From: Euglena gracilis
Lineage: Eukaryota
Assembly (NCBI GenBank): GCA_039621445.1
Contig: CP154954.1
Coordinates: forward strand, 28,113,037-28,177,036
Direction: 5' to 3'
Length of the DNA stretch: 64,000 bases
Below the pieces are notes generated by a model, which was given only the letters and a program-made list of their open reading frames with translations, was not told the origin of the DNA and did no database searches. Below, in pieces: positions 1 through 61,856 of this stretch. Each line of letters begins with the position of its first letter. Position 1 is the stretch's first letter. The position numbers and the translations under genes are program-made.

Positions 1-367
1 AAAAAATGGATTTAATGTAATTTCAGAGGACTGGGTGGAAGAACGAATTCAAAAGGCATTATGTTGGCAATTTCACTGTTTGCAATTTTTGCATGGTGGA
101 CAAAAAAGGGGAAATCTGGCCCAAAAACGCAAAACTAAGCCTAAGCCGAAATCACTTCCCAGCCGAACTTGAAAAACCACCAAAAGAAACCGCACAAAAA
201 ATTACAAAAAAAACACGCAAAAACACACTCAAAAAGCAAAACACACAAATTTCACCGAAACCGAATCACATAACACCCGCAAAAACTGTGTTTGCATTTT
301 CCCCAACACCCCCTCTGCCCGCCCACTGACCAGCGGAACAGTGCCCAGTCAGGGCCCACACACTGTG

Positions 368-3300
368 CCGCCATTGCCGAGGCGGTTGGTCCAGAGGTCA
401 AGCGTCCCTTCGCAGGTGTCACTCTACGCCCATTGCCACAAAAAAGGCGTCCCAGCCTGCAAGCAAACCCGCTGTCTTGCCAACAAATGCCCGACTGTTG
501 CATCCAATAGCCCATCCCCTTCCACACTCGAAAGCCATTTGCCAGAGACCCACTCAGGGAAGAAGGTCTTAAAGGTAGGCCCACTTTTCATAAACGCCCT
601 TTAAGCCTTATTAAATTCAAAGCCTCTGGAAAGGGAACCACCATTCCTTAACGAAAGCTTAAAAAAAAAGCTGTTCACGCATATTCAATCAAAAACCTCA
701 AACCGAAGGGAAATGGGCGAAATTTATTCGCAGCAAAAACAGGTGATTAGGTCCTTGACATATTATGGCAGAGCTTGTCAGAATTTTACGGCGAATATAC
801 AAGAGGGGAGAGGTGAGGGATGCCCAGAAACAGCGAAATGCCTGATGTGGGGTGGACCCCCCCACTCCCCCACCAGGATGGGGTGAAGGGAGTGGTCGTC
901 CCCCTCCCCACCCACCACAGTAAGATTTGCAAAATTCGAGCTGAAAATGAAGTCACAAACTCTCGGCAAAAACAAGCTAATTCCAGGGGAAACTGATTTC
1001 TGGCATCGCTGGAAAAATTTTCTGTCGGACACTCGAAAAAATGGGGTTTCCAACTGTTTCGATTCTGACCCCCATTCTATCCTGGGATGGCCCTTGGGAC
1101 ATCCCTCAGAAAATCGACGCCTTGAAATTTTGAAAATGCCTGTAAAAACCTTAACCGGGTCGGTAAAATGAGCCCCCATCAACCCCCCAAAGAAGTATGG
1201 GAGCGCTCAATGCAATCTGCCGCCTCAGATGGCGCTTCTATTTTGATCCCGCCTGGAAGATTTTTGTTGATATTCTTCAGAAAGCCCAGCAAAGTGGAGA
1301 CTGCCCGACCAGGTGCTCCACCGACCATTATGGTCCGGGCCTACCGAACAGACTTCTTCTTGAGACCCCCACCGGGTTGGGTTTCGGCGCAAAGCGCCGA
1401 AATTTTTTGGGAAATGCCCTCAGACGGCCCGATTTTGTCCCCCCCCCCCGGGGTCCAGCGCTGGGCTGGGTGGGTTGGGGACCCCCCCTCCAGCCTGGGC
1501 CCCCCTGGGGGGGGTCCGGTCCCAGACCCACCCACCCACCCCGGGGGGGGGGGGGGCTGCTGGCTTAAAAAAAAAAGCCTGCTACCGACCTCTATGGCTT
1601 TCCAATAAAGTTAATTCAATATTCTTGTGGAACATGAAGAAGGCCCATTTTTAGCAAAGAATGCACCTCTGGGAGCGCCTGTGCAAATGGGTTGGACCAT
1701 GCAGCCGCCCAGAGCTTCTGTTGGGGGGGGGGGTTGCACCAGATTCACAAGGAGTTCGGCTCTGGAAATTGGTCCGTTGCGTTGCTCATTGAACAGGGTT
1801 CAAAAAAAATATATGTTGCCGGCAGGCGGGTAGCAGGGGGGCCCCCCCCCGGGGGGGGGGGGCCTGCTACCCACGACCCTGCACCTGCCAACATGGCCAT
1901 TAGCGCAACATGGCCATTAGCGCACCTAACCCTACTCCTTCAATTATCCCCATAATAGCGCAACATGGCCATGTTGCACAACATGGCCATGTTGCGCAAT
2001 ATGGCCATGTTGCGCTATTATGGGGTTAATTGAAGGAGTAGGGTTAGGTGCGCTAATGGCAGGTGCAGGGTCGTGGGTAGCAGGGGGGCCCCCCCCGGGG
2101 GGGGGGCCCTGCTACCCGCCTGCCATGTTGCCTTGTACAAAAACAATTGCAATGCCATCTCCACACCCAGAAAGACGTTGTTTCACAGTCTTTGGTGCGG
2201 GCGCAGTGACTTCAAGGCGGTGCAGATTGTTCAGCAGAAAAAGCGGCGGTGTCTCCCCGCCCCTCCAGGGCCACCTGGGCAGCCACTCCAGTGACGGGGA
2301 GGCGCCCAACGCAGCCAGCTCCTTCGGCGCACCTTCCCCCAGCTGGTTCGTGCCAGTGGCCCACCCCGGTCCTACACCCGCCAGGCTGAATTTCATTAAG
2401 CTCGTCTCGGGGTTACTTCGGGAGGTACTAACACACCACCCGAGGGGGAGTTGTGCCTGGTCGTGAGGAAAAATTTCCCCCAAAATGACATTTTCCGGCC
2501 TTCGAACCCCCCCTCCCGAGGACTGACTTCAGCTGCTCAAGTAATAACACCCCCTCCGACAGATGAAAGCAAAGAAAAAAAGAGAATAGAATGAGCGGGA
2601 ATGTTGCAAAAATAACAAAAAGGGATGGTTTGGTGCAGAACATATGTCGAAAAGAGTGCAAAAAAATGACAAAATATTGATGATTAGAACCTATTGAAAC
2701 GCTTTTGGGTCGATTCTTGACTTCAAAACTGTTGCCCTGATAATAACCTCCAAATATCACCCTTCCCCCGGGACCCTGACTTCGAGTGTCCAAAAAATAA
2801 CTGGGGGGATATTGTTTGGGGGGTTCATGTGCCCACCCTCCATCCTGGCCGCAGTAGGGTTTATCATTAGCAAGTTTGATGATTACCTATCAATGGTATT
2901 ACAAAGCGAAGAAGGCGCCCCAGGGCAGACGAAGCCCTCAGATCTGACCCCCACCCTGGGTTTGACATTAAACCAGGTTTTGAGTAGTGCTGAGCTCTTA
3001 ATGGGACATGCATGTGATGGAATGCCGAAAAGACTAGCATTGCAAAGTTCGCGTAATTTTTAATTTACAAATTACACTCTTTCAATTTACGGTGACTTTC
3101 AATGATTTTACGGAACTTTCTGAAATGACAATGATAATCCCCCCCATACACCCCATACCCGTTTTATAGGATTTTTTGACTTTTTTTTACCCATTTTAGA
3201 GCCAAACTCCATGGGTTTCGGGCCCAAAACGGGGCGCAGGGTCGAAAAACGCTCATTTTTGGCTGAGAAACAGGTTTTCCGGGTCTGGGAGGCCAAAAAG

Positions 3301-6300
3301 AATCGTTTCGAACAAAAAAAAATTCGATTTTTTTCGACTTCTTTGACCCGTTCCTGGCCAAACTGCATGGGTTTCGTGCAAAAAAAAAAAAACGGGGCGC
3401 TGGCGGGTCGAAAAACGCTCATTTTCGGCTCAGAAACAGTTTTTCCGGGTCCGGGAGGCCAAAGAACATTGTTTCAGGCAAATTTAACCAAAAATGACCG
3501 AAAACGGCCCAATCACATCAGGTCCAAACTGTACAAAACGGCCAAAATCGGCCAAAAAAAATGACCGTAACTCGAGCTAGGCGGGGAGATGCGGGGAAAT
3601 CAAAATACTGTTAGATAGGGCATTTTAAGGGCTTCAATTTAGGTCTCCAGACATTTCCTTTGATTTTGCTTCATTTTGAGATATCTTAAAAACATCGATT
3701 TTTTTTGACCCCGAAAACAGCCCAAAATGGCCCCTGAAATGGGCCAAAATTGGCCGAAAAATGGCTAACTTGGTAACTCGGTAACTCGGTAACTCGGTAA
3801 ATCGGTCAGGGAAAATGGCTGTAACTCGGGCTACACGAAGAATTGGGGGAAAAATAAACCATGGTTGGATAGGACATTCCAAAGGCTTCAATTTTGCAGT
3901 CCGGACATTTTCTTTGATTTTGATTCATTGTCGAGATATTTTGGAAACCCCGATTTTTTTACCCTAAAACGGCCCAAAAAAACCCCCCCAAAATGGCCGT
4001 TTTGGGCCGCAAAAGCGCGCCGGAACACGGGCCAGGCGTGTCGGCGGCCAAAACGGCGAACGGGGGCGATACAGGGCCTCCGGGGGTGCATTTCGTCAGA
4101 CCGACATTTCCAGAAATAATGTACGTTTTCTCGAGATATTTTCAAAAAATCGATTTTTTGACCGATTTTTGGACCCCGGCAAAATGGCAAAGTCGGAAGA
4201 GGGGGGGGGGGGCGCCTCCACCTTCTGAACAGTGGCTGAATTACAGACCCCAATCATTATCTGGTGCACATTAAAGTCCTGCCGGAGGGGAATGAGAGTC
4301 TGCGGCCTTTTATCGGCATCGTCCGGCCCCCCTCGCCCATGAATGAGGGGGAGGGAGGGACCTCCTAAAACCCCCACCTCTAACCCCTGGGGGGTTGTAG
4401 GTGGGGGGGTCGCTTGAGCTCTTATCTCTTTATGGGTAAGAGCGAAGCTTACCCCTGGGTCCAACCCCCCCCCCTCCCCTCGGGCCACCTCGGGAACCGG
4501 CTGATTATCACCATGATCCTGGCCCGGTTCCCGGATTTTTTTTTTCAGTCGCGAGCGACTGGATTTCTAGTTTCCGAATGCCCCCCCGAACCTACTCTGC
4601 CCCCCCCGGGGGGCGGGCCAGTAGTTAATCCGGGGGGTCAGAATAGTTTTTTTGTGTTAATGATGGAATAGGGTCAGGTGCGCGACTTAGGCTTAGGGTT
4701 AGGCCTAATTTATAGACGGGTGTTCGGTGTACAAGTTAGGCCTAACCCTAAGCCTAAGTCGCGCACCTAACCCTATTCCATCACTAACGCAAAAAAATTT
4801 TTGACCCCCCGGATGAACTACTGGGCCCCCCCCCCGGGGGGGCCCAGTAGTTTCGGGCTGCCTTCCGAATCACCTTCGTTTGACCCCCAACTCCCCGCCA
4901 GGCCCGAGTTATTCACGCACGAAGGCTATGAAAGGGGGTTCCACCCTGTATCTGGAACATCCTTAGCTCAGGCCTTGATTGTTTTCCTCCACACGGCCAT
5001 ATGGGTTCGGAGCACTGGCCGAGGCCCAGCTGGAGCACCACCGTCTGCAACTGACGCATCTCCCGCAGCTGCGCCAGCCAACAAACCCCATCGGGCCCAG
5101 GGGACAGGTTGGAGCATTGGTGACAGAATACCTGTGGGGTCCTCGCCACAGGGAGTGCCCGTATGATTGGACAGGGGGAGTGCCGACGAATCTAAATGAA
5201 TAATTTGGTTTGATATCCAAGGGTTGATATTGGCAGCTTATTACCCAGGAGGCCAGGCCCACTAGTGTGGGATACGGTTAGGGTTACGATTTGGCCCAAA
5301 AGTAGACCCAATTTTGTCCTCCACAGTGGGAAAAGGGCAGCTCTATGGATCAGGCTCTGAATGAGCGAGTTGCACAACAGGGGTTTCCCAAAGTTTCAGA
5401 TTTTCACAACAGGCTTTCTCTTGCGCGCCCACTGCAAAAACAAGTCATGATCTAAACCATCACTTCAATGTCAAACAATCGTCGGCATTGATTGGCGGAA
5501 ACAATGATAGCCATGGCCACTGCCCTCTGCCCGCGGTGGAGCTGGTTCTGGTTCAGGTTGAGGGCCAGAGAGCGCAGGGACGTGGAGGCCCGGAGGCCGG
5601 CGAGGGCCTCGGCGCCGTCCGGCCCGAGGTGGTTGCCGGACAGGTCCAGGCGGAGGGTGTGGAGGAGCGGTGCCTGCGCCAGCAGCCCGGCGGGGGCGGC
5701 CTCCCGCCTGCGGCAGTGGGGCCCATCGGGGACCTGGCCGGCGGGGGGGGGGGGGGCACACCAACCCGAGCCCGTCTGTCGCGGCCATTGAAACGCCGCC
5801 ACTGTACAAACAGAGCTGGAAGTTGGAAAGTCACAGCGGTCACACACGGGGTACGGATCCCTCGTTTGGGTATGGCAGAGGCCGCCCCCCTCGCCAGCGC
5901 CGCCGCCCCGCCGGGGCCGATGTGGGCCCGGGCGGCGTCGAGGGACAGGGTGCCGAGGCGGGCGGCGGTGCGCAGCCCCGCCAGCGCTGCCAGCCCGCCG
6001 TCCCCGATGGGGTTGCGGCCCAGGTTCAGGTGCCGCCAGGGCCGCGGCCGGTGGGTCGCCGGCAACACCCGGCACAACACTCGGCCGCAATCGACAAGGT
6101 CTGGCGAGTGCACCGGGGCGGAGGGGCCTCCAGGCAGGGATCATCATTTTTCAAACGCGCCAAAACCTTAAATGTTTTAAAATGCAGCTTAAAAATATGG
6201 GCAGAATTTTCTCCGACTGAGCAAAAATGAAAGCGCAAAATCTCGGCAAAAACAGGCCAGCTCCGGGGAAAAAATGATGATTTCTGGCATTAAAAAAATA

Positions 6301-9300
6301 AATAAAAATATGGTTTTGATTTTTTGATTTTGGACCTCGTGCAAAATCAAAAATGTTGGTTCGATGCCCACACAGCCCTTGGACAGCCCTGAAAAATGGC
6401 TCCTTAAAACGCCTTAATGGACAGGGCTGAAAAAATGCCTCCTTAGCGCCTTAAACCGTCTTTGCCTGTCTCCAGCGGCCGGTGGGCAGGGGCCAGCTCG
6501 TTGGGATCGGCAAGAACCCGGGCACTCCAAACCCAGGGTCAACCATGCCGCGGCCTGAAACCCGTCCACTGTCCAGAGCTGGGTTGGCGACAGTCACAGC
6601 GGCACCCCGGGGGGGCAGAGGGCCCGCCCTGGCCGCCGGTGGACCGGCGATGTGGCCCGGGGGTCGAGGGAACCCCAGGCTAGCAAATGCCATCGCGCGT
6701 CGCAGAACTGTCCACTATCCACAAACTGAAAAAAGTTAATTCAGCAGCCTCGAAAAACATATGCACTCAGGCCTCCAGAAATGTGGGCCACCGGCACCTG
6801 GCAAACAAACGGGCCTCAAAACTAGACAATGATGTCCGAGGCGGATGGGCCTCCAGGCAGGGATCACATTTTTCCAAACGCGCCACAAACCTAATGAAAC
6901 ACTTAAAAAAGGGTCTTAATTTTTTTTGAATGTTCCACCGAATTTAAAAAATCCATCAAATGAACACAGCACAAATTAATGAAAGTCGCCCAAGTAAAAT
7001 CCACATTAAAGATGTTTTGACCCTTGATTTCCATCTGAAAATCAAAAATGTTGGTTCGATACCCCACAACCTTGAAAATAATAAAGCCAAAAAACGGCTC
7101 CTAAAATCAAAGGTAAGTATTAAACAAATCAATAAAAGCCTGAAAGAAGGCCTAAAAAATAAATTATAATAAAAAAAATGCCGTAAATTTTTGAGAAAAA
7201 AAATTCCCTTAAAAAATGCCTGGCTCCCAGGCTCCTTTTCAACAACCCCTATGGGTGCCTTGTGCTGTAGGTGCCATACCCCCGCAAGGGTTGTGACCTT
7301 CCTAAGAAGCGTGGTTGCTCCCCCTTTCTTTTTATTTCCCATGCCCTGCGGACTGGGGGAGCTGCTGGGGGCGGGCCTGGGGGCCGCCGCCGGCCCTGGC
7401 CGCAGCGTGTGCAGTGCTGGGGCCGCCCCCAGTCCAGCCAGCGCTTGGGCCCCCGCCACGCGCAAGGGGGTTCCCGTCCAGCGGGCTGGGATTGCCGGTG
7501 GAGGGGGAGGGTGGGGGCTCTGGCAGCGCCGGGCACCCCGCTGGCCGGGCCGATGTCGGTTTTGTACACGTCCAGCGACAGCCACTGGAGGCCCGGCATG
7601 TGGGCGAGGCTCCGGCCCGCCGACCTGCCTGGATTCGGTGCCCCCCCCACCACCTCGGGATTGGGACATAAACGGGGATGCCACCACTCCCTTCCGCTGG
7701 CTCTTGTTCACTCTCACAAACTCTGGAGCATTTTATTTGTCCAAGGACCCAAGCCCGTTGAAGTAGAATGAAAAGGGTGGCTGGAAACCTGCCTTTCAAC
7801 AGAAATCTGCCAATGCCAAGCTCAACTCAAACCTCAGCAGAAGAATGCAAATTATCAATGAACCGAGAGGGAAACGGGGGGGGGGGGAATAACTGATATT
7901 GGAGGCCATCAGAGAAATTGCAGGAAAAAACTGATATCAGGAATGTACACATTTCTGCTGGAAGGACACGATTCTGAGCTACACCCCGAATAGAAGTAAC
8001 TAATAATCACGTACTCCTGCAAAATTTTTCAACTGCTCCAGAAATTTTGCAACATTGTTTGGCATTTTTTCCAACAAAATATTACAAAATTATACTTCTT
8101 CTTATTTTGGAAACATGCTGCTTCCACAACATATGCAATTTCGTTGGCCCAAAATAAAATGACAAAATTTGCCAAAAAATTTCGTCTTGGGATAAATCTG
8201 GTCCAAATTCAACAAAAATAAAGAAACCCACCTTTGCAACGAATGGACCGGCCACTGCCGAGTTCTCCTCGTACCGAATCACAACTTTAATGTTGCACAC
8301 CCCAACCAAGAAGATTTGGGAGGGAACACCCCCCATGCCACCCAACCACACCCACAGCGACAACCCCACAGGAAAAATGAAACACGTACGAAAAAAAGGA
8401 CTGTGATACCCCCTTCGTTTTTATATCATCCAGAAATGGCCGGAAAACTCATGAATTTGGATGATCAAATTTTAGCAAAAGAAAAAAAATGGAGTGGGAA
8501 TTTGCAGAAAAAATTGCGGAAATGGGGAATTTGAGGGCAAAAATTGCAGGAAAAAAAAAACCCGGAGGGTGGAACTGCTGGGAAAAATTGTGGGAAGGAT
8601 AGATTGCAGGAGATATTGCGGGGGACAAAAAGGAAACAATTGGCAAAAAATAAAAAAAAAAAAAAAAGTAGGATTCAAAATTGGCTGTCAATTATTCCCC
8701 TAGGGAGGAGGAATTTTCAGGAAAAGTTTTACAAATTTAAATATCAGTCCTCTGTGCCGCTTTTCTCTTCACCTTCAACATTTCCCAATGCTTTTGATAC
8801 CCCCTCACCAAGGACTGGAAAATACAACGCCACCAGGCACCCAAAGGCAGCTTTATGGCAAACCACTTCAAGGGAGACCACAGGGAGGGCGGCGGCCGCC
8901 AGGGCAGAGGCCCCGATGTCCCCAATCTCGTTGTGGGAGAGGTCGAGGCCAGGCTTTTTTTTTACCAACCCCGGGGGGGGGGGGGGTCGGAGTGCCTTTG
9001 TGTGCCTTCCCAGGCAGGCACCCCCCCCCCCCGGGGGGGGTGGGGACCACCTTAAAAAACGGCCTGGTCGAGGCCCAGCCCCCCGAGGCGCTGGAGTCCA
9101 GCCAGCTCCGCCGCCCCGAGCGGCCCCACCCGATTGTTGTGGAGGTCGAGCATCGGCGGCAGCGCCCTTTGCGAGGTCCGGCATTGGAGCGGACGGCGGT
9201 CGCAGTGAGGCAAAGTTCTCCCAACTGGATGAGGATTCTATTTTTAAGCGCCCGGGGGGAGGGCGGCCCCCCCCCCCCCCAGCCGGGCACAGGACCCCCC

Positions 9301-12300: not shown

Positions 12301-15300
12301 CTCAGAAGATAAATTGGCAGAGACCCAAACAGAATCTTTGAGGCGTGCCAATGCAACGGCACCATCCGACGTCACTTGGTTGTCCCACAAGTTCAAGCAG
12401 AGGCAGGGACGAGGTTTGCAGTTGGGCTACCTCCGTATTTTCTTTTTAATTCATTCCTTGTGACATTCAATTCCTTGTGCACCGGACAAGAATTACAGAA
12501 AATATACTCAGGATGACCCGGGGGGTCAGTGTTATCTGATGTGCCTGGCATACTTTCGCGTGCTTGGGACACACAAGGGTGCAGGGGGGGGGATAGATAT
12601 CAGAGTCTTTCGGAAAAACTGCGTAAAAATTGCAGGAAATTTTTTAAATGTGTTTTTGAAAATTAGTGCACTTCTCCTGGAAGTGGGGGTTGGAAAAAAA
12701 CTCACAAATTTGCTCATTTTGCAACACAGGTGTATCTTTTGAGCCGTTATTCACATTTTTTCCAACAAAAAGGTCTAAAAACTTGATTTTTGTAATTTGG
12801 AACATGCTCGTTCGGGAAACATGGAATTTCTTGGTGAAAAAGCCAAAACTGGCAAAAAGTTGCCGAAAACTTTGGTCAGGTAAAATCTGGTCAGGTGAGC
12901 AGAATTATTTCCCAGCAGAAATTGGGGGAAAACCTAAAAAAGACCCAGAATTTTGTCAAGTTTTATAATATTTTTGGCAACTTTTGGCAAATTTGCAACA
13001 AAATGACAAAAAAGCACCTGGTTCCCTTGTGAAACGTTCAGGAATGGCCAGAACTCATTTCGCCTTCCATTTCAGGTTCATGCGAGAAAAAAAGCTCAAA
13101 GGGAAAAAAATGCAGAAAAATTGCAGGAAGTTACGGAAAATTGCGGAAATCGCGGAAAAATTGCGGATATCAATTTCACCCCCGAGGCGGATAAACTGCC
13201 TTGACCCCACCCCTGGCGCATACCGCCCACCCCTACAAATGGTGTGCTCCCACTCCTCCAAGGGCAGCCCTGGACCTATCAGCCCCGTCCGTGGAGCCCC
13301 GGCCCTGGGCACAGGGTGTGCAGGGAGGCGGCCCGCTGCAGCAGCGCGAGCGCCTCCGCCCCGGCACTCTCGATCTTGTTCTTGTGGAGGTGCAGGGTGA
13401 GGGACGTGAGGGACGCGCAGGTGAGCACACAGTGAGGCTGCCACTGGACTTCCATTCTCCATCTGTGAGTGAACGCATTCATCCCAATATTGAAGGAAAC
13501 AAACGCTGGAACCAGAATCACCCAACGCCCATTTAAAGCCAAAAAAGCTTCACATACAAAATTCAATAAACCACAATTTATGGAAAAAAGTGTGCAACGA
13601 GTTGATGCTTTGCTTTCGTGTGCACAGTCCGGACAAAAATGACGGGAAACAAAGATGATGGGAAACCACCAAAAATTTCCCGTCATTTTTCCATCATTTT
13701 TTCCCCCTGAACCCTTTCTATGCCCTTTTGGAGGAACCACATTCACAGCTGGTCAAATTTCACGCACAAAGGATGGGGGTATGACATATGATCAAGTTTG
13801 GGGTGTGTTTTCAATACAACCACAAAAAAAAGAACACCCAGAACACCATTTTGACACTTTCTTGGAATTTTGAGGTGCTGCCGAAAAACTCCCACTTATT
13901 ACCTTCATGGAAAATTGAAATTTCCATCACTTTTTCCAGAATAAAAAATTTCCCATCATTTTATTTCCCGTCATTTTTGTTTCCCGTCCGCTTCCGCCAT
14001 TTTTGTCCGGACTGTAATTTGGAGAAAACTTGGATGTGCGTGGGCAAACGTCATTTCAAAGCCAGCTTCAATGGGCTGCAGAAATCGCCGAGCACATTAG
14101 CACGTCAAATAACTCCTCCAATCATCCCACCTCACAATTTGAATTTACCAAAATTTCAATGCAACGGCAAAATCAATTGTTGTTTGTATTGCATAATCGT
14201 ATCCACAAAATGCAAGGTGCTTCTCCGGACGAAAAGTTGCTGAGGTTGCTCAGAGCTGCCACGCCACCATCGCCAAGCAATGAACCCTGTACAGAGTTTC
14301 TTTTTTGGGCTGAGGAGAGTGGGGACACTCAAGGGCAATATGCGACGCCCTTCAATGTGTCAGGACATCATGGCCCAGAAATTCCTTCCTCTTGCTGCTC
14401 AAATAACGCATCCCCAGGGGCCTGGCTACAATGACATTTCGGTTGTGAGGACATTTTGGTTCACTTTGGTTGGAGGGACACACTTCTATTACAGGGGCAT
14501 TTTGAAACACTTCGGCTAAAGGTGGGGATGAAACTTACTTTTGGTTTTTAAAAAACTGGGAGAAACCATTTGCTTTTTTAACTTTCAATTACTTTTTGAA
14601 CAAAAACTGGGCCAAAAATTCTTCAAAGCTTGTTTGAGATAAAATTCTGCAAATTCTCAAAATACTCCGATTTTTCATTTTGACCTTTTTCCTTCGCTAA
14701 AATTTTCCTTTATTTTTTATGTTTTCATACCGTTTTCTTTTTTAAAAAGCACTGTTTTTGCTCTTTTTCCTTCAAAAGCAACAGAATGCCAACGCTTTGA
14801 ATATGCATTGAACAGATCAGAATGTCAGTGTCAAAGCGAATCCTCCACACAGGGTTTGTTGCCAGAAAATTACACAACGTTCCGTCAGTAAAATTTGATC
14901 TTTTTGTGCTTCTTTTGCAATTCACTAACTTGGCATGTCCACTCGAGACTGGAAGGGCCCAAAGAAAGAGGACGCCCAAAAAGAGACTCTTTGGGGAGAC
15001 GCCCTAAAACTTACAGTCAATGCCTGAAAAAGGGTCCAGCATCTTAAAAAGAATCCTGATCCCGCAGCTGCATTGTCTGTACAAGGGAGCTGCCAAAGCT
15101 CTCCATGCAGCCACGGAGGCACCACGAGCACCTCCCACCACATCCCGAGGATGAATCACCACACAGCTGACTTTCCTATGGACTTATCGAGGGCGTTGTT
15201 GGGTTGTGTAAATTCAACGTTCCTTGGTTGCCTTCATTTCAGTCTTGTGAGAGGTGAGTAGAAAGACAACCTTGGTGAATCATTTGCTGGATGTCGTTTT

Positions 15301-18300
15301 TTGCGATTTCTGGAGCTTGGAGGACAAAATCAGTCAGCAATGGGGAGTGTTCGATTTTCGTTGTTGACATCCCTCATAATTCACCCCGAAACCCTCCAAA
15401 CCCCCCCAGGGTGTCATTTATGGGGATTTTGAAGGGAAAATCCAAAAGAACTGTCATCGGCAGCGAGCAAAATTTCATATTGCAGAGCGGTGGGTGTCAT
15501 TTTTGATTTATAGAGTGGCACCTACCGTATTTGTCACCCCTGGGGGCACTGCCAGACCCCCTTTGTTGATGTCAACGCACCCTAATTGGACAATTAGAGT
15601 GCGTTGCCAGTATTCCACCTAATTGGCACTTTTCTGACACTCCTTTCGCACTCCAAAAAAAAAGTTCTTCGGCTGGTCCTTGGGGATTTAGTACCCCCTA
15701 CCCTCACCCCCCCTAATTGGCCTCCAGGACAACACTGGCAAAAATTTGGCCAGGCTCCAACGACTTCCCCAAAAAATGACTATTGAAACAAATGTCCATC
15801 AAAAAGTGGAGAAAAAAATTCATGAAGCACCCAACCGTGCACAAAAAAAAACAAATTTTGTGCTGGGGGTGATAGCAGGGGGTGGGATCCTTGAGTCTCC
15901 TTGCTTGTCCCCCCCCGGCTAATTGGCTGATGGGGGGTCTGAGGGAACCTGGTCATTATAAGTCATAAAGAAGGTGTGAAATTGCCACCCTTCGGCACAC
16001 AGGCAATATTCCCCCTGGCAGCAGGGAGAAGCACCAACACCCCCCCCCTTTATTTGAGCACACCCACGGGTCAAAAGACCCCCCAAATGCTCAAACGAGG
16101 GGGGGTCGGAAATTCGGCTTTGAGAGAGGACAAAAAAATTTTGGCGCCTTTGGCGCCTAAAATTTTTTTCCCCCAGACCCAAATGTTCAATTAAGGGGGG
16201 GGTCAAATAAAGGGGGGGGATGGTATTGACCATTTTTCACCAACTCCCCCAGGGGGAGTCATTTTCTACTCTGCTAAAGACCAGCCAAAACCATTTTCCT
16301 GGAAAAATAGCAATTCAGCACCTGCCTGGGAGGTGGGTTGGTCACTTTGGGATCCAGTGGAATTGACCACACATGTGAAGCACGACCAAAAAAAACTTTC
16401 TCTGACAGAAATGCCTTAAAATTCACTTTAAATTCTTGGCCAAAATGGGTAAAAATCCCTTAAAATGCCAATGCCTTAAAATTTCTGAGGGGAAATTTTT
16501 CCTCCAACCCAGCAAAAATGAAAGTGCAAAAATCTCAGCAAAATAACAGGCCAAATCCAGGGGAGGAAAAGCGATTTCTGGCATCGTTGGAACATTGTCT
16601 AGTCAAAACTGAAAGAAAAAAAATGAGCTTTTTGCCCTCTTTTTTTTGGATTTGGACCTTGTGAAAATCAAAACGTTGGTTCGATGCATGCCTGGATGGC
16701 CCTTGTACCACCCTGAAAAGTGGCGCACCAAAAAGCCTCAAAGTGCTGTTACAAAGCCTTAAAAAAGCTTAAACAACCTTAAATTTTTGAAAAAATTCTG
16801 CTTTGAAAAAGGCCCACCTCCATGGTGATTGGCATTTGCCAATCAATTGGTGCAGCCTTGGAAGAAATCCACAACATTGGCTGCTGTCACTTGGCACCAA
16901 ATATGACGACTGGCTAATAGTGATCGAAGGCGGTGGCAAATCTGGCTCGGCATCAAGAGAAGAATGAATGTGCATCTCTTTCTTGATGTACGTTCATATT
17001 CCCTCCCTTTAATCCCCTCTAATTCTTCGACAATTATCGTTAATTCGACAATTTCGGGGGCAGTAGTGTGTCGGTTCATGGGCAAAACCTGCGGCCTACG
17101 GGACAACACTCAACAAAGAGCCCAAAGAGCATCACAACTTCAATTACCACCGGGTTTTATGCAGCCGGCGGTTTTCAGTACGTACCCAGGGGAAACCAGG
17201 TGGTCCAGTTCGGTCCAAAAGACCCCCCTCCCTAGGGTTGTGCCAATTAATCGTTTCGAGCAGGCGAATAAATCGGGGTGTCTCAGACGACTAACGATCA
17301 ATTGGTCCCTTCTGAGTTTTGCTGTTGAAATCTGCATAAGAAATTGAAATGCGGAACTCAAACCATTTCTTTGCGCGCCCTCTAACGAATTTTTTCCTTG
17401 TTCTGGGCCAGGCACTAGCAAATTAGGAACCGTGTCAGCTTAATAAATCGCACAGCATTTCACTGGCACCTTCGCTGACTCATGGCAACTTTAACAACTG
17501 TGTCAAGGTGTAAGTAGAGTATTATCTGACTGGTTACTGTACGAAATTGCGTGTTTGTAGCAAATATCGCGCCCATCGTGGTTGACATCCATAATGAACG
17601 ATTGCCCTGGGCCGAACGATTCGGAATCGGCGATGACGAACAATTAGTCGATTAATCGATTGATCGAATCTACCCCAGCCTGGCCGGGCCGGCCCGGGAT
17701 GGGCCGCCACCGGGCCGCTAATCCACTGGCCTGGGCCGTGCCGCCGGGCCGTTGGGCCGGGCTAGGCCGCCGGCTGCCGATCACCTCAAACATCTGCCAC
17801 ACGCCTCAAACATCAGCTGCAGCATGGCACCATCACACATGTAAAGAGCTCGGTACTACACAAAACCTAATCAAACAGGGGGGGGGGTATTCAGTCACCC
17901 CAAAAACGTCCCCCCCCCTGTGACCTGGACCACCAACAACAATGAATTAGTAACAAGGTAATTACCATGCCCTGGACCCTTTACGGCCCAATGGGAACAG
18001 TATGGGGGCAGCTGGACCTAGGTCCCACTCAAGCTATTCCCATACCCGAACCTGGCACAGCCCAAAAGGGGGCACCTTTGGAATTTTTTAGGATGTTCAC
18101 AAAAAATGGTCAATTTCAAGCACATTTGCCAAAAAGCGATTTTTGAAAACGTCCAAATAATGTCGATTTGACCATTTTTTCGGGGTTTCTTCACAAAGCA
18201 CGCTATGACAGTGAGCTATTCCAGTCAGGCTTTTGCTTAAGGACCCCGGGGGGGGGTACTGGCTAGCCAATCGGCTAGACACTGGAAAAAATGGACTAGC

Positions 18301-20641
18301 TAGACCCCCCTCCCCCCCCCCGGGGGGGGGGGTCCGGGGGTCCCCCCAACTGGAAAAAAATTTTCCTCCGGCACTGCGCGCCGAGGTGGAAATCAGGTTT
18401 TTAATAGGTTTTTGGGCTGTTTGTTCAAAAATTCCCAAAAATCCTATGGTAAATGTCATATTATTCGGTTTTTCTCGACAAAAATTAGAAAATCTGTCGC
18501 GAACAGTTCACTCAAACCTGATGTTTTTTTTCGGGGTCAGAAAAATCCAAAAATAGACCCCCACCCAATTCAATTCATAAGACCGTAATCTATCATTTTG
18601 GGTTTTTTGACTGGTTGTACGTCTTTACTCAAGCTATTTACGCCTGATAGTCGCACTCCCCGGGCACCCAGCCCATTTTTTTAATGTATGCTAGTCAAAA
18701 AAATGGTCAATTTCAAGCACAGTCCCAAGTCGATTTTTGAAAACCCAAATAATTTTGAATTTCTTTTCTTCACAAAGCACATGGCAAGCTCAGTCCACCC
18801 CCGGGTGGGGGGGTACCTGGACAATCCTCAACAGAAGGAGAAAAGGTATAGCTGGAGTCGGGGGGGGGGGCCTGTCCCCCCTCACTGGAATAAATTTTTT
18901 TCCTTCGTGCACCAAAAAAATTTGGTTTTTTTCAAGCTTAATTGTTTTTTGAAAACGTCCAAAATTTTTTTCCATTTTTTTTTGTTCCACAAAATGAGCT
19001 AGTCCAGCCCTTTTTAGGACTCCGGCTCCTTACTGCCCCAATCCCTAAAGCATGGAATCCCCCCCCCCCCAACGGTCGGGGTGTCCCCCCACTGGAATTT
19101 TTCTGTTGGAATCGTTTTTTATTTTTGGCTGATTTTGTTCCAAAAATTCCCAAAAATGGCCAAAGACGGGCTAGCGGCCAAATTTGGACTAGCTGCAGTC
19201 CAGCCCTTTCCCCGGGGGGGGGGGGGACTGCAATCCCTTAAGCAGAAGCCTGATTCCCGTCCCCCCTATGGGAATAGCTTGGGAGGGGGGGCATGGAAAT
19301 TGTTTGGTCCCCCCAACGGTCAATTAAATGAGCACAAATCCCATCAATGTCAGTGAATCGCGATTTTTGCACGCATCTCTATTGGATGTTGATTGATTAT
19401 AACCTGCGCATGCCCCCATTGACCAACAGGGGTACAAATCCCCGAAAAGGATGTGAAGTAGACTGGGTAGTCGGCCAACTACGCAATTGGTCGGCTGACT
19501 AGCCCCTGTTGGCAGCTAGTTGAGCGGCAAGATGCGGTGGGGGGGGGGGGTAATCGGCTGACTACCATGCCCCACCCATATAACACCCCCCTCAGGAGCC
19601 AAAATCCAAGGGGGGGTCTTATATGGGGGGGGTCTTATATGGTGGGGTCGCTGAGCTCTTATCCCTGACCAAGATCCTTTGGCCTCCCGGAAAAACTGTT
19701 TTTGAGCCGAAAATTAGCGTTTTTCGACCCGCCAGCGCCCCGTTTTGGGCCGCCAACCCATTGCCTTTGGGTCAAAACCCGGTCAAAAAAGTCGAAAACA
19801 ATCGATTTTTTTTTTTGCCCGAAACGATGTTTTTTTAGCCTCCCGGACCCGGAAAAACCGTTTTTGAGCCGAAAATGAGCGTTTTCCGACCCGCCAGCGC
19901 CCTGTTTTGGGCCGCCAACCCATTGCCTTTGGGTCAAAACTGGGTAAAAAAAGTCGAAAAATTTTTTCCCCGAAACGATGTTTTTGGGCCTCCCGGACCC
20001 GGAAAATTTGTTTTTGAGCCGAAAATGAGCATTTTTTCGACCCGCCAGCCCCCCGTTTTGGGCTGCCAACCCATTGCCTTTGGGTGATTTTCGGGTCAAA
20101 AAGTCGAAAAAAATCTAAAAAAAATTTTGCTCGAAACGATGTTTTTTGGCTTCCCGGACCCAGAAAAAGTGTTATTTGAGTCAAAAACGACTGTTTTTTG
20201 ACCCCCTGGCCTCCGGTTTCGGGCACAAAACCCTTGCATTTCAGTCAAAAGAGATCCATGGAGTGGGCCGGTGTGGTGGAAATTAGCAACCAGAGGCTTG
20301 ACCCTGGCGTGCCTGATGGGAAAGGGCCGGCGGTCTACCTGACCTGTCACAATTAAACCATTGCGGCTTCGGCCGAGCAGTGACACTAAGGACAAGCAAC
20401 CCCTATCAAACACGCCATCGCCAAGCATCAGGAGCTGAGGCAAGGGATGGAGGACTTCGAGTGCCACGAACCCGAGGGCTAATGCCCCCTGGCGGTAGCT
20501 CCACAGGCGAGAAATCGCTTCGTCCAGAAAATCTGTCCTCAGTCGTTGGAAAAATTCTCTCTTGCCCAACGCTGCAGATTGCAAAAAATCAGAGACATGA
20601 TACCAAACATCATTCGGAAGACAAGAAGCTTCACTCATCAT
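368..20641 (-). CDS. F-box/leucine-rich-repeat (RNI-like LRR) protein, multi-exon; 3' end runs off the left edge of the window
   Basis: Exon 20641-20568 (MMSEASCLPNDVWYHVSDFLQSAAL) joins exon 16948-~16860 (SQICHRLRSLLASRHIW) to form an F-box motif. LRR exons: ~14290-14230 (LLGDGGVAALSNL), 13424-13311, 12398-~12320, ~10950-10850 (LALDLSDNAVGDRGATALAGL), ~9154-9070, 8944-8898, 7612-7547, 7457-7402, 6031-5893, 5686-5533, 5092-5021, 2348-2281, 406-~368. The joins give in-frame LxLDLxxNxIGxxGAxALAxL repeats. Exons within 9150-12320 and 13430-16860 are only partly resolved. Confidence 0.85.
1349..1581. mobile_element. hAT-type MITE
   Basis: CAGAC...GCCTG ends; TSD CTACCGAA/CTACCGAC. Confidence 0.7.
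1821..2124. mobile_element. Palindromic (foldback) MITE with GG..CC ends, possibly Merlin-type
   Basis: Near-perfect ~300-bp palindrome; perfect TSD ATGTTGCC (1813-1820, 2125-2132). Confidence 0.8.
4580..4862. mobile_element. Palindromic MITE containing TTAGGG-like motifs
   Basis: Foldback structure; perfect TSD TTCCGAAT (4572-4579, 4863-4870). Confidence 0.75.
8945..9069 (-). other. Nonconventional intron consisting of a MITE (8950-9066) plus one 8-bp TSD equivalent
   Basis: Element CAGGCTTTTT...AAAAACGGCCTG flanked by the perfect direct repeat GTCGAGGC (8942-8949, 9067-9074). Removal gives in-frame GGC CTC|GAC CTC TCC CAC AAC (GL|DLSHN). Confidence 0.85.
13625..14014. mobile_element. MITE, possibly Tc1/mariner-type
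   Basis: TIR CAGTCCGGACAAAAATG / CATTTTTGTCCGGACTG; flanks CA and TA. Confidence 0.6.
18226..19252. mobile_element. hAT-type MITE inside intron 1 of the F-box gene
   Basis: CAGGCTTTTGCTTAAGG / CCTTAAGCAGAAGCCTG; TSD ATTCCAGT/ATTCCCGT. Confidence 0.75.
19680..20215. repeat. Tandem repeat with ~155-160-bp unit (~3.5 copies); related inverted copies at ~3165-3480
   Basis: Recurring GCCTCCCGGACCCGGAAAA...GAGCCGAAAATGAGCG...CCCATTGCCTTTGGGT. Confidence 0.75.
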
Positions 20642-24306: not shown

Positions 24307-24737
24307 CAGGGTTCGATATAAGGACAGGTGGGGGGGTGTTCCGGACCCCCCCCTGCGGGCCAGGAGGGGGGGGGGTGGGGGGGGACACCCCCCCCCACCT
24401 AAACAGGTGCGCGGTCAGGGTGGCTGAATTTCGGCCCGGCGCAAAGCGCCGGGCCGAAAATTTTTGACCCCCAAAACGACCAAAAGTGCCATTTTGGGCA
24501 CTTTTTGGGCAAAAATGTGCCAAAAATGCAAAAAATTTTCGGCGCAAAGCGCCGGAGGAAAAAATTGACCCTTTTTGGGGGGGGGTCCCGGGAACCCCCC
24601 CCGAGGGTCGGTCCAGACCCCCCTGGCAGGTGGGGGGGGGGTGGTCCGGAACCCCCCCCTGCGGGCCAGGAGGGGGGGGGGTGGGGGGGACACCCCCCCC
24701 ACCTAAACCATGTACGCCCTCCTTATATCAAACCCTG
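24307..24737. mobile_element. hAT-type MITE (same family as 48318-49009)
   Basis: CAGGGTTCGATATAAGG / CCTTATATCAAACCCTG; perfect TSD CTGATACC. Confidence 0.85.
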
Positions 24738-25214
24738 CTGATACCCCCCAGAAGGAAAAGTAATGAAGAAACAACAGACAAAATGAGCTAAAAATCACAC
24801 ACTGTGCAGGAAAAATAAAGTGCAATGGGCCAGCCAATCTCTGAATCTTGGCCCCCCAAAAAACATATGATGGCCCAAAATACCTTCTTTTACCCCCCTG
24901 ATGAAGAAATATGGAGGGGCATTCTTGGACCTATTTCAGTTACACAGGGTTATGATTCTCATCCAAACAGCAGAACATTTCCCGCTCAACGCTTTTTGAT
25001 TGGCCTCTACAAGGTACCCAGCGAACCCGAAGAGCCGCCCAACTAGGGTTAATACACATGAGGGGGACCCGAGCGAGGCGCCTTTGGCGCCTCGTTCGGG
25101 TAGGGACCAACTTATCACGTTTCTGAGCAACCGGTTTCTATACACAAATTTTCGGGGGCCCCCTGGCTGAACACGTTTTCAGGCTGAAATCTGGGCTCAG
25201 CCACAATTTATTTA

Positions 25215-45400: not shown

Positions 45401-45444
45401 GAGCCAGAGCAAGAAATTAAGAAAGAACTTTGGTAATAAAAAAA

Positions 45445-46715: not shown

Positions 46716-49700
46716 ATGGAACTCGCAATCCCTGAAGCATCTACAACTATTTGTGTCGGAAACCTTCCCGACTATATGAGCAGGAATCACTCTCCAGTGA
46801 GATTTCTTGCTCTTTTTTTGATTGGTTCCTGTTGTAAACTGCTCGTGAATTCCGCCTTATGTTCAAATTCGCAAACGGTGTCCAACGGTGCATCATCAAT
46901 CACACCAAGGCTGGACACCAGGTTGGTTATGCAAGGTTTGGAACGGCACAAGAAGCACAAGCCGCCATTGAATGGCTTGCGCAGGGCTGCTGAAAATGAT
47001 ATGAAGTTTTATGTGAAATTTTCAACCTGACAGCTTCCCTGATGCTCACGGATACCCGATTGACGAGGACTTCCCAAACACTTTGAAAGTTTTCATGTCT
47101 TCAACTCAATTGCGCGATGCCCTTCCTGGCACCCGACCAAAGCGCCCGCTGGACAATGGTTTTGGCGCACCTGCAGCGAAATTCCCACGTTTGGGGGGAG
47201 TGCACAGAATTTGACAACTGTTCAAATGTGCTTGTGAGAGGCCCAGGTTTCTCTGAGCACTTTTTCTGATCTGCAAAGTGTGAGAACCATGAGGAAGTCA
47301 AATCAACCTGGAACCTCACTAATGGAAATGAACCAGTTGTGATGTTGTTTGATTTTGGTTTTTGCTTGTTCAAAAAATCGGAAGAAACAAAGAAAATTTT
47401 GTTTTTGGCAGGGACTCTATTCTTTGGACAACTTGTCTTTTCAAAAACTGACCAAATGCAGAAGCCCACACCAACCAGAACTTATGGAGAGAATGCGAAT
47501 CGCCAAAACCTGCACGTTGGGGGTTGCTGGATACTGTCTGCCTCGCCTCAGAAGACCACTTTTTAGAGCACTTTTGGTGATTCAAGTCCTTGGTTGACTC
47601 AAAGGTACTTGTTCGCTACTCGACCGCCAGTTTATTGTGAGGTTATTTGAAGGGTAGGGTTAGGTGCGCACATGGCCATGTTGCACAACATGTCCATGTG
47701 CGCACCTAACCCTACTCCTTCAATAACCTTAAATATTCCAATAAGACTTTGAAAAATTTCGGTGGCGGTCGGGTAGCGAACAAGTACTGACTCAACGGAT
47801 TCAAGGTCGTTGGGTTCTTGATTACCAGGACCTTTTTGGCGGTTTTTTCCTTGGAGGAATTTTTGTGTGAAGCGGACGCAACAACAAGCAAGGTAAACCG
47901 TCATTGTCAAAAAAAAGGACTTCGGTGCCCTGAGGTGCTTGGGCCACCTCTTCAACCAAGCCACCTCGTTTCACCTCATGTCAAATTCTGAAATGCCTTT
48001 TGCTGCAGCTCCTGGGTTCATTGGTGGCCGTGGTTTTGGCAAAGGTGCTGGAAAAGGCCGTGGGAAAGGTGGTGCACAGGCTGAATTTCAAGGCAATGCC
48101 GACCGGGGGTTCCTGCCAGGCTGTATTTTAGTCGGGTGCCGACCCCACCCCGGGGGGGGGGGGCAGGCACTCCAAGGCCCCCCTGATCCGACCGTAGGGC
48201 ACATGGCCAAAAGTGCCCTGGCACAACCCCGGCGCCGGGGAGCCAAAAATGGCCTATCCTCAAAGGAATGTGCCTGGGCACAGACCGAAATCCGACCCCC
48301 CCGGGGGGGGTAGTGCCCAGGATTTGATATAAGGAGGGCGTACATGGTTTAGGTGGGGGGGTGTCCCCCACCCCCCACCCCTCCTGGCCCGCAGGGGGGG
48401 CCGGACCACCCCACCTGCCAGGGGGGTCCGGACCGACCCTGGGGGGGGGGCACCCGGGACCCCTCCCCAAAAGGGTCATTTTTTCCTCCGGCACTTTGCG
48501 TCGAAAATTTTTGCATTTTTGGCAAATTTTTGGGTACTTATCTGTTATCGCACGACATACCCCCCCCCTTCGGTTATCGCACGACACCCTTTTTTGGGGT
48601 TATTTAAAGGAATAGGGTTAGGTGCGCACATGCTACGTTGCGCTACATGGCCACGTTGCGCTACATGGCCATGTAGCGCAACATGGCCATGTAGCGCAAC
48701 GTGGCCATGTAGCGCAACATTGCATGTACGCACCTAACCCTACTCCTTCAAATAACCCTATAAAACCTAAAAATAAGGCGTCGTGCAATAACCGAAAGGG
48801 GGGGGTATGTCGTGCGATAACAGATAAGTACCAATTTTTGCCCAAAGAGTGCCCAAAATGGCACTTTTGGTCGTTTTGGGGGGTCAAAAATTTTCGGTCA
48901 CCCAGACCGAGCCACTGTTTAGGTGGGGGGGTGTCCCCCCCACCCCCCCCCCCTCCGGCCCCGGGGGGGTCCGGACCCCCCCCCCCCCACCGTCCTTATA
49001 TCAACCCTGGTAGTGCCTGCCTGAGCAGGCACTCTGGACCAGGGTTGGTAAAAAAACAGCATTTTGGGCACTTTTTGGCCCACGACCTGGCAGGCACTGC
49101 CCCCCCCCCCACCTGCCTAAATCACTCCCAAACCCCCTCCCCCAATTTCAATTTCAGCCTGGTGGTGTAGCCTCCAGCCCCTCATCCGTTTATGTTGGAG
49201 GTGTACCCCATGACTGGGATGAGCCCAGGGAAGTGCCAAGTGTTTCCAGAGCACAGACGCAGCATACTTCCAACACACCCCACCATCCGTTACTTGGGGG
49301 GTCAGGCCCAGGCAATTGCTTAAGCACAGACCAACCAACCCCCCCCCCCCCGGGGGGGGGGGACTGGTTTTTTCAAAGTGACTGACTGGTTTTGGGCCCG
49401 GACCCCCTCCCCCCCGGGGGGGGGGGTCGGCCAGGAGTGGGCAAAAGTGGCTTGAGTGACCCCGGCGCCAAAGGCGCCGGAAAAATTTTTTGGGCCTTAA
49501 ATGGCCTAAAGTGACTGGAAAGTGGCCGTTTTTCTGAGTGGCCGACCCCCCCCCCCCCGGGTGACTGGCTGGTTTTTTGAAAATGAGTGACTGACTGGTT
49601 TTTAAAAAAGTGGAGTGACCCCCCCCTCCCCCCCCCCGGTCGGTAAGCAATTGTATGGTCAGGCCGATCAAGATCTTCTCATGCAAAAGCAAAAATCTTC

Positions 49701-59914: not shown

Positions 59915-60408
59915 CAGGGAATTTCTTAAGCCGGAGGGTACCCTACCCCCCGGGGGGGGTCCAGCCAGCCAGCAGCTCAAATCCAGCCAGCAGCCCAAAT
60001 TTGGGCTGGGAGCCCCCCCCCCCCCCCGGGGTCGAGTGAAATAAAGTCGGGTCCAGCCCGGCCGGAGGCCGGGCCAGCCGGCCGAAGGCCGGCCCAGCCG
60101 GCCGCAGGCCGGCCAGCCAACTGGGCTGTCCAGCTCACTTATCCCTGCATTTTTCCCCCTCATCACAGCCCCCCCATCACAGCCCCCCAGCCTTGATCTA
60201 GCTCCACCCATCAAAATGTCGAAAATGTGTTAGAAATTTTTGTTTTTCTTCGACCCAGCCCAGCCCAGCCCGCTCCAGCCCCGGACCCCCCCCTCCCCCC
60301 CCCCCCCCCCCCGGGGGGGGTCCAGCCAGCAGCTCAAATCCAGCCAGCAGCCTTTTTGCCAGCCGGAGGCTGGACCCCCCCCCCGGGGGGTCCTTAAGAA
60401 ATTCCCTG
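59915..60408. mobile_element. hAT-type MITE
   Basis: CAGGGAATTTCTTAAG / CTTAAGAAATTCCCTG; perfect TSD CATGTTGG. Confidence 0.85.
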
Positions 60409-60723: not shown

Positions 60724-61007
60724 CTGGCTTCTTTTTAAGTCACCTGACCCCCCCCCCCCCGGGGGAGGGGGGGTGGGTGGGTGGGTCCGGGCCGGCCCCC
60801 CCCCCTGGGGGGGGGGTCCCGCGCCGGAGGCGCTGGGTATACCTTTTCGGCGCGAAGCGCCGAAAATTTTTGAAAATTGCCTTTAACGGGCCCAATTTTG
60901 GGGGGGGTCCCCGTCCCCCCCCCCCGGGGGGGGTCCCGCGCCACCCTGGGTGGGTGGGGGGGACCCCCCCCCCCCCCCCCCCCCCGGGGGGCTTAAAAAG
61001 AAGCCTG
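60724..61007. mobile_element. hAT-type MITE
   Basis: CTGGCTTCTTTTTAAG / CTTAAAAAGAAGCCTG; TSD CCATGGAC/CCGTGGAC. Confidence 0.8.
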
Positions 61008-61580: not shown

Positions 61581-61856
61581 CAGGGATTTTTTTAAGTTTG
61601 GACCCCCGGGGGGGGAGGGGGAGGGGTAGGGTGGGTGGGTCCGGCCGAGCCCCCCCGGGGGGGGGTCCCCCCCTGGAGGGGGGTGGGATATATTTTTTTG
61701 GCGCTGCAGGCGCCGAAAAAATTCTATTTTTAGCACTTTTCGCGATTTTTCGGCCATTTTTTTTTGTGGGTCCTCCGGGACCCCCTCCCCCCCCCCCCGG
61801 GGTGGGGTGGGTGGGGGGGCCCCCGCTCCCCCCCCCGGTCTTAAAAAAAACCCCTG
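61581..61856. mobile_element. hAT-type MITE
   Basis: CAGGGATTTTTTTAAG / CTTAAAAAAAACCCCTG; perfect TSD TGCCGGGC. Confidence 0.85.

Follow-up and report, generated by a model that had tools for sequence, protein, structure and literature searches.

In a 64,000-nucleotide (nt) stretch of the Euglena gracilis genome (GenBank assembly GCA_039621445.1, contig CP154954.1, positions 28,113,037 to 28,177,036), referred to here in its full length as the window, we encountered a 117-bp element that interrupts a coding exon of a transcribed leucine-rich repeat (LRR) gene. It is probable that this element is a hAT-like transposable element of the miniature inverted-repeat type (MITE) whose insertion acts as a scar-free nonconventional intron. 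According to this explanation a short non-autonomous DNA transposon, hAT-like in its CAG...CTG inverted ends and 8-bp target duplication, would have entered a coding exon of an expressed LRR gene of the RI type, and nonconventional splicing would place its cuts 3 nt ahead of CAG and 5 nt past the CTG that pairs with it. Since both triplets sit at the very ends of the element, the cut would lie within the two copies of the duplication, and excision would take the element together with exactly one duplication (125 nt, phase 0), such that the coding sequence that preceded the insertion remains. Our data establish that the insertion and its 8-bp duplication are real, that the window holds a population of related elements, that the splicing code is obeyed and that the gene is transcribed.

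The element (8950-9066) starts CAGGC, stops GCCTG and is adjoined on both sides by a perfect 8-bp direct repeat (8942-8949 and 9067-9074). A repeat search extends this repeat to 10 nt (GGTCGAGGCC, 8941-8950 and 9066-9075, 100% identity), which corresponds to the 8-mer with one chance matching base on each side. The terminal inverted arms (8949-8962 and 9054-9067) are 14 nt long with 86% identity, and the terminal inverted repeat (TIR) matches at 12/16 positions when compared ungapped; the interior consists of palindromes of C runs and G runs, with a T/A-rich subterminal inverted repeat. Two characteristics of MITEs, terminal inverted repeats and a target-site duplication of fixed length outside them (here 8/8), are present, and the duplication has the 8-bp length of hAT elements. 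The window contains 349 CAGGC/GCCTG pairs spaced 40-3000 bp apart, four of which have flanks matching at 7/8 positions or better, and a match of 8/8 is found at 8950-9066 only. A chance origin of the flanking repeat is unlikely, and since the duplication has remained perfect the insertion probably happened recently. The two flanks, read on the minus strand, are in different frames (...LQRLGGLGL against DLSHNEIGDIGASALA), and excision of 125 nt unites both in one frame that reads G-L-G-L-D-L-S-H-N. An earlier note, made from the sequence of the window alone, had described the element with its duplication in the LRR exon and had predicted that excision would restore a GL/DLSHN frame; its coordinates proved exact and its arithmetic (3 + 117 + 5 = 125) holds.

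A code for nonconventional introns has been derived from knock-ins in E. gracilis by Nomura et al. 2025 (PMC12501133) and, in the part of that paper available to us, reads N3-CDG...CH'G-N5-6 followed by a purine. The 3-nt spacer allows no change, the 5-nt spacer allows one additional nucleotide, pairing past the triplets is required, and 50-bp synthetic introns made by these rules alone were spliced in E. gracilis. On the minus strand our locus reads ...ctc/GAC-CAG-GCC...GCC-CTG-GCCTC/gacctc, with CDG at +4 to +6 and the complementary CH'G followed by 5 nt to the 3' end, and the first base of the downstream exon is the required purine, a G (complement of the C at 8944). In this N3/N5 register the predicted intron opens with GA and closes with TC and is therefore neither GT-AG nor GC-AG; the GT-AG border expected of a spliceosomal introner does not occur at any register in the slidable range. 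The minimum-energy fold pairs CCAGGC with GCCUGG, including CAG with CUG, and continues into a 6-bp U-A stem. The overall z-score of the fold is only -1.87, because shuffled sequences with runs of G and C also fold well. Judged from its sequence, the element satisfies each published rule for nonconventional introns in the orientation of the gene. The CAG/CTG register had been recognised in the earlier note, and the element carries the full, experimentally defined code. The claim made there that any insertion, in either orientation and any phase, would become such an intron was overstated, as the code needs a purine and pairing beyond CAG/CTG. It follows from the purine rule that a purine is needed at position 6 of the duplication in the transcribed sense.

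The host gene lies on the minus strand, with its listed joints within 2348-16948, and its exon translations form a series of RI-type leucine-rich repeats, one larger exon piece scoring 26.3 bits against LRR_6 (cut-off 23.4). RNA from three raw-read runs (X21, X22 and X24) and one run of contigs (X15) was mapped to positions 1-20000 of the window; 15 of 79 RNA joints were listed and 11 joints of the gene were analysed (2348>5021, 5685>5892, 7611>8897, 8949>9080, 9153>10161, 10192>10876, 10947>12330, 12396>13309, 13410>14227, 14285>15061 and 15106>16864). GT-AG is present at none of these 11 joints at any allowed shift. The reads and the chain of joints show that the gene is transcribed. Run X21 contains transcripts of two alleles, with C>T at 10896 in 7/12 reads and at 16881 in 5/9. 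The exon at 10161-10192 is only 32 nt long. Reads and an X15 contig pass position 16948 into about 30 mutually agreeing letters (agreement 0.94) that are not found in 1-20000, and at least one further upstream exon must therefore exist. An additional joint from 6033 to 7544, suggested by a loose end, was dropped as its nine loose letters mismatch. No RNA runs containing 5400-12500 were listed in the sequence-run index. None of 291 candidates reached E <= 10 when the 61-amino-acid frame containing the upstream exon half was compared with longer proteins, and this search offered no deposited protein of the mRNA form. In metagenomes, a 30-nt piece of the exon (8920-8949) had 0 matches.

The 117-bp element belongs to a population of similar elements in the window. 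We searched for CAG...CTG pairs 40-3000 bp apart with repeating flanks, excluding repeats of two or fewer letter types, and compared the counts with those in 62 shifted control sets. Exact flanking repeats of 8 bp were observed nine times against a control mean of 2.66, a count reached by 1/62 controls. The corresponding values (observed against control mean) for shorter repeats were 37 and 40.5 (k=5), 13 and 15.9 (k=6) and 8 and 6.3 (k=7), and for longer repeats 0 and 1.5 (k=9), 1 and 0.79 (k=10) and 0 and 0.53 (k=11). Enrichment of flanking repeats in the 64-kb window is confined to 8 bp, in keeping with the MITE-like insertion with 8-bp duplication that had been proposed. When a TIR of at least 12/16 was added as a condition there were four exact 8-bp cases against 0.016 in controls, and a TIR of at least 12/16 combined with a duplication of at least 7/8 gave six cases against 0.18. 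The 64 kb contain nine duplication-flanked elements, four of them with CAGGC, a T-rich run and an AAGG end (Table 1). The elements at 1349, 18226 and 60724 end alike, with CAGGC, the T-rich run and AAGG followed by C/G runs; the earlier note had taken these three for free copies of the family, and each indeed carries a 7/8 duplication of its own, the likeness being restricted to the ends. None of the eight duplication-flanked elements other than 8950-9066 is an RNA-supported intron.

BLAST of the 117-bp element against the window returned 593 pieces, nearly all of them matches between C/G runs, and the family was therefore defined by the end-motif scan and the duplication scan. C runs directly joined to G runs (CCCCCCGGGGGG and variants) occur throughout the window, often just inside element ends, and dominate similarity searches. 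Open reading frames (ORFs) across the in-silico empty sites of the nine elements were uninformative, because the GC-rich flanks are open in most frames. The ends of the 48318-49009 element (CAGGrTTTGATATAAGGA) are also those of the 24307-24737 element. Nine RNA reads of run X24, dissimilar in their upstream parts, set in exactly at 18226, where the 18226-19252 element opens, which suggests that many copies of the 18226 family are transcribed in differing contexts. An X15 contig omits 18359-19122 and has 17 other letters instead, and in this it resembles a shorter family member.

Several results weigh against the explanation that the exonic insertion is a MITE removed as an intron, and these concern the identity of the element, the RNA at the insertion site and the other introns of the gene. 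As regards identity, hAT elements have short TIRs that begin YARNG, and 8-bp duplications are also made by other superfamilies. The copies at 24307, 59915 and 61581 start CAGGG, consistent with YARNG, whereas the fifth base of those at 8950, 18226 and 48077 (CAGGC) departs from it. No transposase was found in a Pfam scan of 10 window proteins, comprising 9 of the 18 ORFs of at least 220 amino acids and one 34-amino-acid exon translation; the cut-offs were passed by RVT_1 and LRR_6 only, and K1-lyase_Rider appeared below threshold (17.8 bits, cut-off 27). The RVT_1 match (E 7.8e-11, 42.5 bits) lies in a 622-amino-acid open frame on the minus strand (43548-45416), and the window therefore contains a retroelement. 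We accordingly use the label hAT-like in a tentative sense, for the 8-bp duplication and CAGG(G/C) ends only; the hAT membership proposed in the earlier note is likewise a matter of duplication length and end motif, and no transposase was found among the window proteins scanned.

Likeness among the copies is only terminal, extending over about 16-30 nt. The window holds no close full-length copy of the 117-bp element, the best full-length match being 68% identical (61007-60896). Such limited likeness could also be produced if 8950-9066 were no transposon insertion but a nonconventional intron of the ordinary kind, with an 8-nt repeat left by the repair of a double-strand break, its resemblance to the other elements reflecting the shared code and common C/G-run repeats. 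An 8-nt repeat has already been read in this way in the E. agilis gapC gene, according to the accessible text of PMC4770533. We nevertheless regard such an origin as improbable, since the same ends occur with 8-bp repeats of their own at eight other window sites, one of them nested and none an RNA-supported intron. Moreover, the excess of flanking repeats is specific to 8 bp, and the RNA reads at 18226, with their dissimilar upstream parts, set in exactly where the element opens.

At the insertion site itself the joint 8949>9080 is supported by three reads in X21, one read in X22, none in X24 and one X15 contig (depth 220.3), and the exon halves are joined in mRNAs without the element and with one copy of the duplication. 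This junction is not the one predicted in the earlier note: the X15 joint holds 14 letters, whereas only 5 would remain in the window once the predicted excision is made, a net difference of 9 nt plus one substitution. The 14 letters were seen in the X15 contig and are presumably the same in the X21 and X22 reads. Transcripts encode LGGLARLCLDLSHN, with an LRR period of 29 amino acids, in place of the LGGLGLDLSHN of the window, with a period of 26, and the window allele may be damaged. Neither the 14-mer nor any of its sub-strings of at least 11 nt is present in the window, where only 9-10-mers occur (at 25069), which excludes a micro-exon in the window as the source of these letters. As the 14 letters are not encoded by the window, the transcripts must derive from another allele, copy or strain, and they would look alike whether that variant has an empty site or contains the element and splices it. 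At both single-nucleotide polymorphisms, 10896 and 16881, the X15 contig agrees with the window and yet contains the 14 letters; the difference is thus local to the insertion. A skip of 125 nt, as predicted for the junction, does not occur in the listed joints (15 of 79). In X21 the element interior at 8987 is covered by 10 reads, five of them with the window letter, a number close to the junction counts of the gene; these reads could represent intron left in the transcript, intron RNA after excision or transcripts of further copies.

These observations can be accommodated if the allele in the window is a disrupted one, perhaps silent or spliced wrongly, in which an ordinary exon insertion is accompanied by an adjacent 9-nt deletion and a substitution, and if the mRNA comes from an intact empty-site allele or copy. 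The sole listed joint at the site, with its 14 letters foreign to the window, and the return of the transcripts to the 29-amino-acid period are as this account would have them, as are the expression of two alleles in X21 (7/12 and 5/9 reads) and the window-letter reads within the element (5/10 at 8987). It is nonetheless unlikely, though it deserves serious consideration. The element conforms to every rule of the code that was tested, and introns built on that code alone are spliced, as reported in the available text on the 50-bp synthetic constructs. The window allele is in frame after the predicted excision, the listed joints represent only 15 of 79, and the interior reads may stem from other copies, 88% of mapped reads continuing into unlike sequence. 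Disagreement of the window with every listed transcript piece at this spot only, in homopolymer-rich flanks, might alternatively point to an assembly artefact, the element and the 9-nt difference having been put into the exon through a collapsed haplotype or a read rich in repeats. This is slightly less credible still than an origin by break repair: a perfect 8-bp duplication beside intact inverted ends is the mark of a real insertion and not of a misjoin, and fourteen DNA-type runs contain 0.57-0.61 of the sampled words of 5400-12500, a figure for the region as a whole. We therefore return to the probable insertion of a MITE that would behave as a nonconventional intron, and infer that this copy is excised from its own pre-mRNA.

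The remaining introns of the gene bear on the question of how general such an origin might be. Only 3/10 of the other RNA-supported introns use the CAG/CTG, N3/N5 and purine register and 7/10 lack CAG/CTG, which tells against a general role; together with the predicted intron at the element, CAG/CTG is used at 4/11 joints. The seven introns without CAG/CTG pair near their ends by other motifs, for example GGGTCTCTGCC/GGCAGAGGTCCC at 10948-12329. For the three CAG/CTG introns we compared the last 5 exon nt plus the first 3 intron nt with the last 5 intron nt plus the first 3 exon nt, as a residue of a former duplication. This 8-mer identity test had been proposed in the earlier note, and its outcome in this gene is divided, with high matches in the introns at 12399-13310 and 14287-15061 (6/8 and 5/8) and, to the detriment of the proposal, an unremarkable 3/8 in that at 2349-5020. 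Pooled over the three introns, a small sample in which slidable matches are included in the count, 14/24 positions match (binomial P = 0.0005 for p = 0.25 and 0.004 for p = 0.30).

The intron at 14287-15061 is supported in four runs (joint 14285>15061, with five reads in X21, four in X22, three in X24 and an X15 contig). It carries the family end motif CAGGATTCTTTTTAAG exactly at +4 and CAGAGTTTCTTTTTT, in reverse complement, at its other end, so that this RNA-proven intron has the appearance of an older family member. In addition, an exact 8-bp repeat (ATCGGCGG, 9152-10005 in the window) flanks a CAG...CTG stretch at 9160-9997. The left end of this stretch agrees with the 3' border that RNA supports for intron 9154-10160 (CTG plus 5-6 nt, then a purine), and the RNA-supported 5' border of that intron lies about 160 nt past its right end. 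This stretch may be either a product of chance or an old element with a shifted donor side.

More broadly, we regard it as nearly as likely as not that the CAG/CTG class of euglenid nonconventional introns is a footprint left by a single transposon superfamily with 8-bp duplications, and that the splicing machinery reads transposon ends in RNA. On such a footprint reading the cuts would fall 3 nt and 5 nt outside the element ends because 3 + 5 equals the length of the duplication, and we infer that the code owes its 3/5 register to the 8-bp length of the duplications made by the elements. The general claim draws on three introns and one published case. If it is true, an exonic insertion with a purine at position 6 of the duplication would vanish from the mRNA without a scar, which would account for nonconventional introns outnumbering GT-AG introns and for most of them being slidable. 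The sum 3 + 5 = 8 would offer a simple numerical reason for spacer lengths that are otherwise arbitrary.

Table 1. Features of the insertion site, of the CAG/CTG introns of the LRR gene and of the duplication-flanked elements (window coordinates)
Feature	Position	Strand	Details
Left target-site duplication	8942..8949	.	GTCGAGGC, exact match to 9067-9074, adjoins element CAG
MITE-like element, 117 bp	8950..9066	.	CAGGC...GCCTG ends, TIR; end motif common to 1349-1581, 18226-19252 and 60724-61007
Right target-site duplication	9067..9074	.	Exact copy of 8942-8949
Predicted nonconventional intron, 125 nt	8945..9069	-	N3-CAG...CTG-N5/R; cut slidable over repeat; excision of this copy predicted
Interrupted exon, downstream part	8897..8949	-	LDLSHNEIGDIGASALA; joints 7611>8897 and 8949>9080
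Interrupted exon, upstream part	9080..9153	-	MLDLHNNRVGPLGAAELAGLQRLG; joints 8949>9080 and 9153>10161
Divergent bases	9075..9079	.	CCAGC in window, 14 letters in transcripts; net 9 nt and one substitution
Intron	12399..13310	-	GCC-CAGGG...CCCTG-CCTCT/G; joint 12396>13309; duplication match 6/8, reached by 0/54 other offsets
Intron	14287..15061	-	GAT-CAGGATTCTTTTTAAG start, CTG-TACAG/G end; duplication match 5/8, reached by 1/54 other offsets
Intron	2349..5020	-	Duplication match 3/8, reached by 25/54 other offsets
Element, 233 bp	1349..1581	.	Duplication 7/8, CTACCGAA/CTACCGAC
Element, 1027 bp	18226..19252	.	TIR 15/16; duplication 7/8, ATTCCAGT/ATTCCCGT
Element, 284 bp	60724..61007	.	Duplication 7/8, CCATGGAC/CCGTGGAC
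CAGGG...CCCTG element	24307..24737	.	Exact duplication CTGATACC; TIR 15/16
Outer element, 1085 bp	48077..49161	.	Duplication 7/8
Nested element, 692 bp, inside 48077-49161	48318..49009	.	Exact duplication GTAGTGCC
Element	59915..60408	.	Exact duplication CATGTTGG; TIR 16/16
Element	61581..61856	.	Exact duplication TGCCGGGC; TIR 13/16

The origin of euglenid nonconventional introns is described as open in the parts of the literature available to us, in which a MITE origin has been argued from inverted repeats and from short repeats at the junctions, with no element identified. Milanowski et al. 2014 (PMC3935182) proposed MITE-like insertions as a source of these introns and remarked, in the portion of the paper at hand, that transposable elements still awaited identification in the genomes of euglenids. 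Transposon origin was listed as an open question by Guminska et al. 2018. The legend of Fig. 3D in a 2024 review in Mob DNA (PMC11282704), as far as the accessible text goes, treats CAG/CTG as TIRs and likens the junction repeats to target-site duplications. The accessible sections of Nomura et al. 2025 (PMC12501133) call the origin unclear, cite the MITE idea and report junction repeats in 84.4% of introns. Our element agrees with this MITE-origin hypothesis in that CAG/CTG are terminal inverted repeats and the junction repeats are like target-site duplications. The hypothesis as worded in the available text of PMC3935182 and PMC11282704 differs in naming no family, superfamily, duplication length or link between 3 + 5 and 8 bp.

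A literature search combining Euglena, hAT, transposon and intron found no paper, and a link between 8-bp duplications and nonconventional introns is not stated in the available text of the 2024 review (PMC11282704), supplements and subscription papers lying outside this search. A defined family with 8-bp duplications, an intact exonic copy and the link between spacers and duplication (3 + 5 = 8) were not found in print and appear to be new. The novelty claimed in the earlier note is upheld for the intact exonic copy and the 3 + 5 = 8 register, whereas MITE origin, junction repeats like target-site duplications and an 8-nt repeat had been published before, as the accessible parts of PMC3935182, PMC11282704 and PMC4770533 show. 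To this background the window adds a population of CAG...CTG elements that is defined here and carries 8-bp duplications, an exonic copy with its duplication intact and the full splicing code, and a second, RNA-proven intron in the same gene with family-like ends. The MITE-origin hypothesis thereby becomes testable genome-wide and by the existing knock-in assay.

The predicted intron shares with known euglenid nonconventional introns, as described in the text available, the non-GT-AG borders, CAG at +4 to +6 paired with CTG at -8 to -6, the 3-nt and 5-nt spacers, the purine, the additional pairing and the slidable repeats. It differs in that everything from CAG to CTG can be recognised as a transposon whose 8-bp duplication is intact, and in that its excision is predicted; no intron made up of such a transposon is described in the literature examined, part of which was available as partial text. 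The nearest published case is intron 4 of gapC in E. agilis ACOI 323 (Milanowski et al. 2016, PMC4770533), a new, strain-specific intron with eight-nucleotide direct repeats that was interpreted as a result of double-strand-break repair. Like it, the predicted intron would be a recently gained nonconventional intron flanked by 8-nt direct repeats, although no element family is named in the available text on the gapC intron, and the comparison with our element is by description only. In relation to hAT MITEs, the window elements have the 8-bp duplication and CAGG(G/C) ends, several copies starting CAGGG; the 8950-9066 copy differs in starting CAGGC, and no transposase is present among the window proteins scanned. 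Finally, the introners of Micromonas and other protists (PMC11282704, accessible text) and the intron made by Ds in maize are likewise DNA transposons that turn into introns as they insert, part of the splice geometry coming from the duplication. In contrast to those introns, which are spliceosomal and have GT/GC-AG borders, the element described here is predicted to leave the transcript by a structure-guided, non-GT-AG route that takes no signal from the target.

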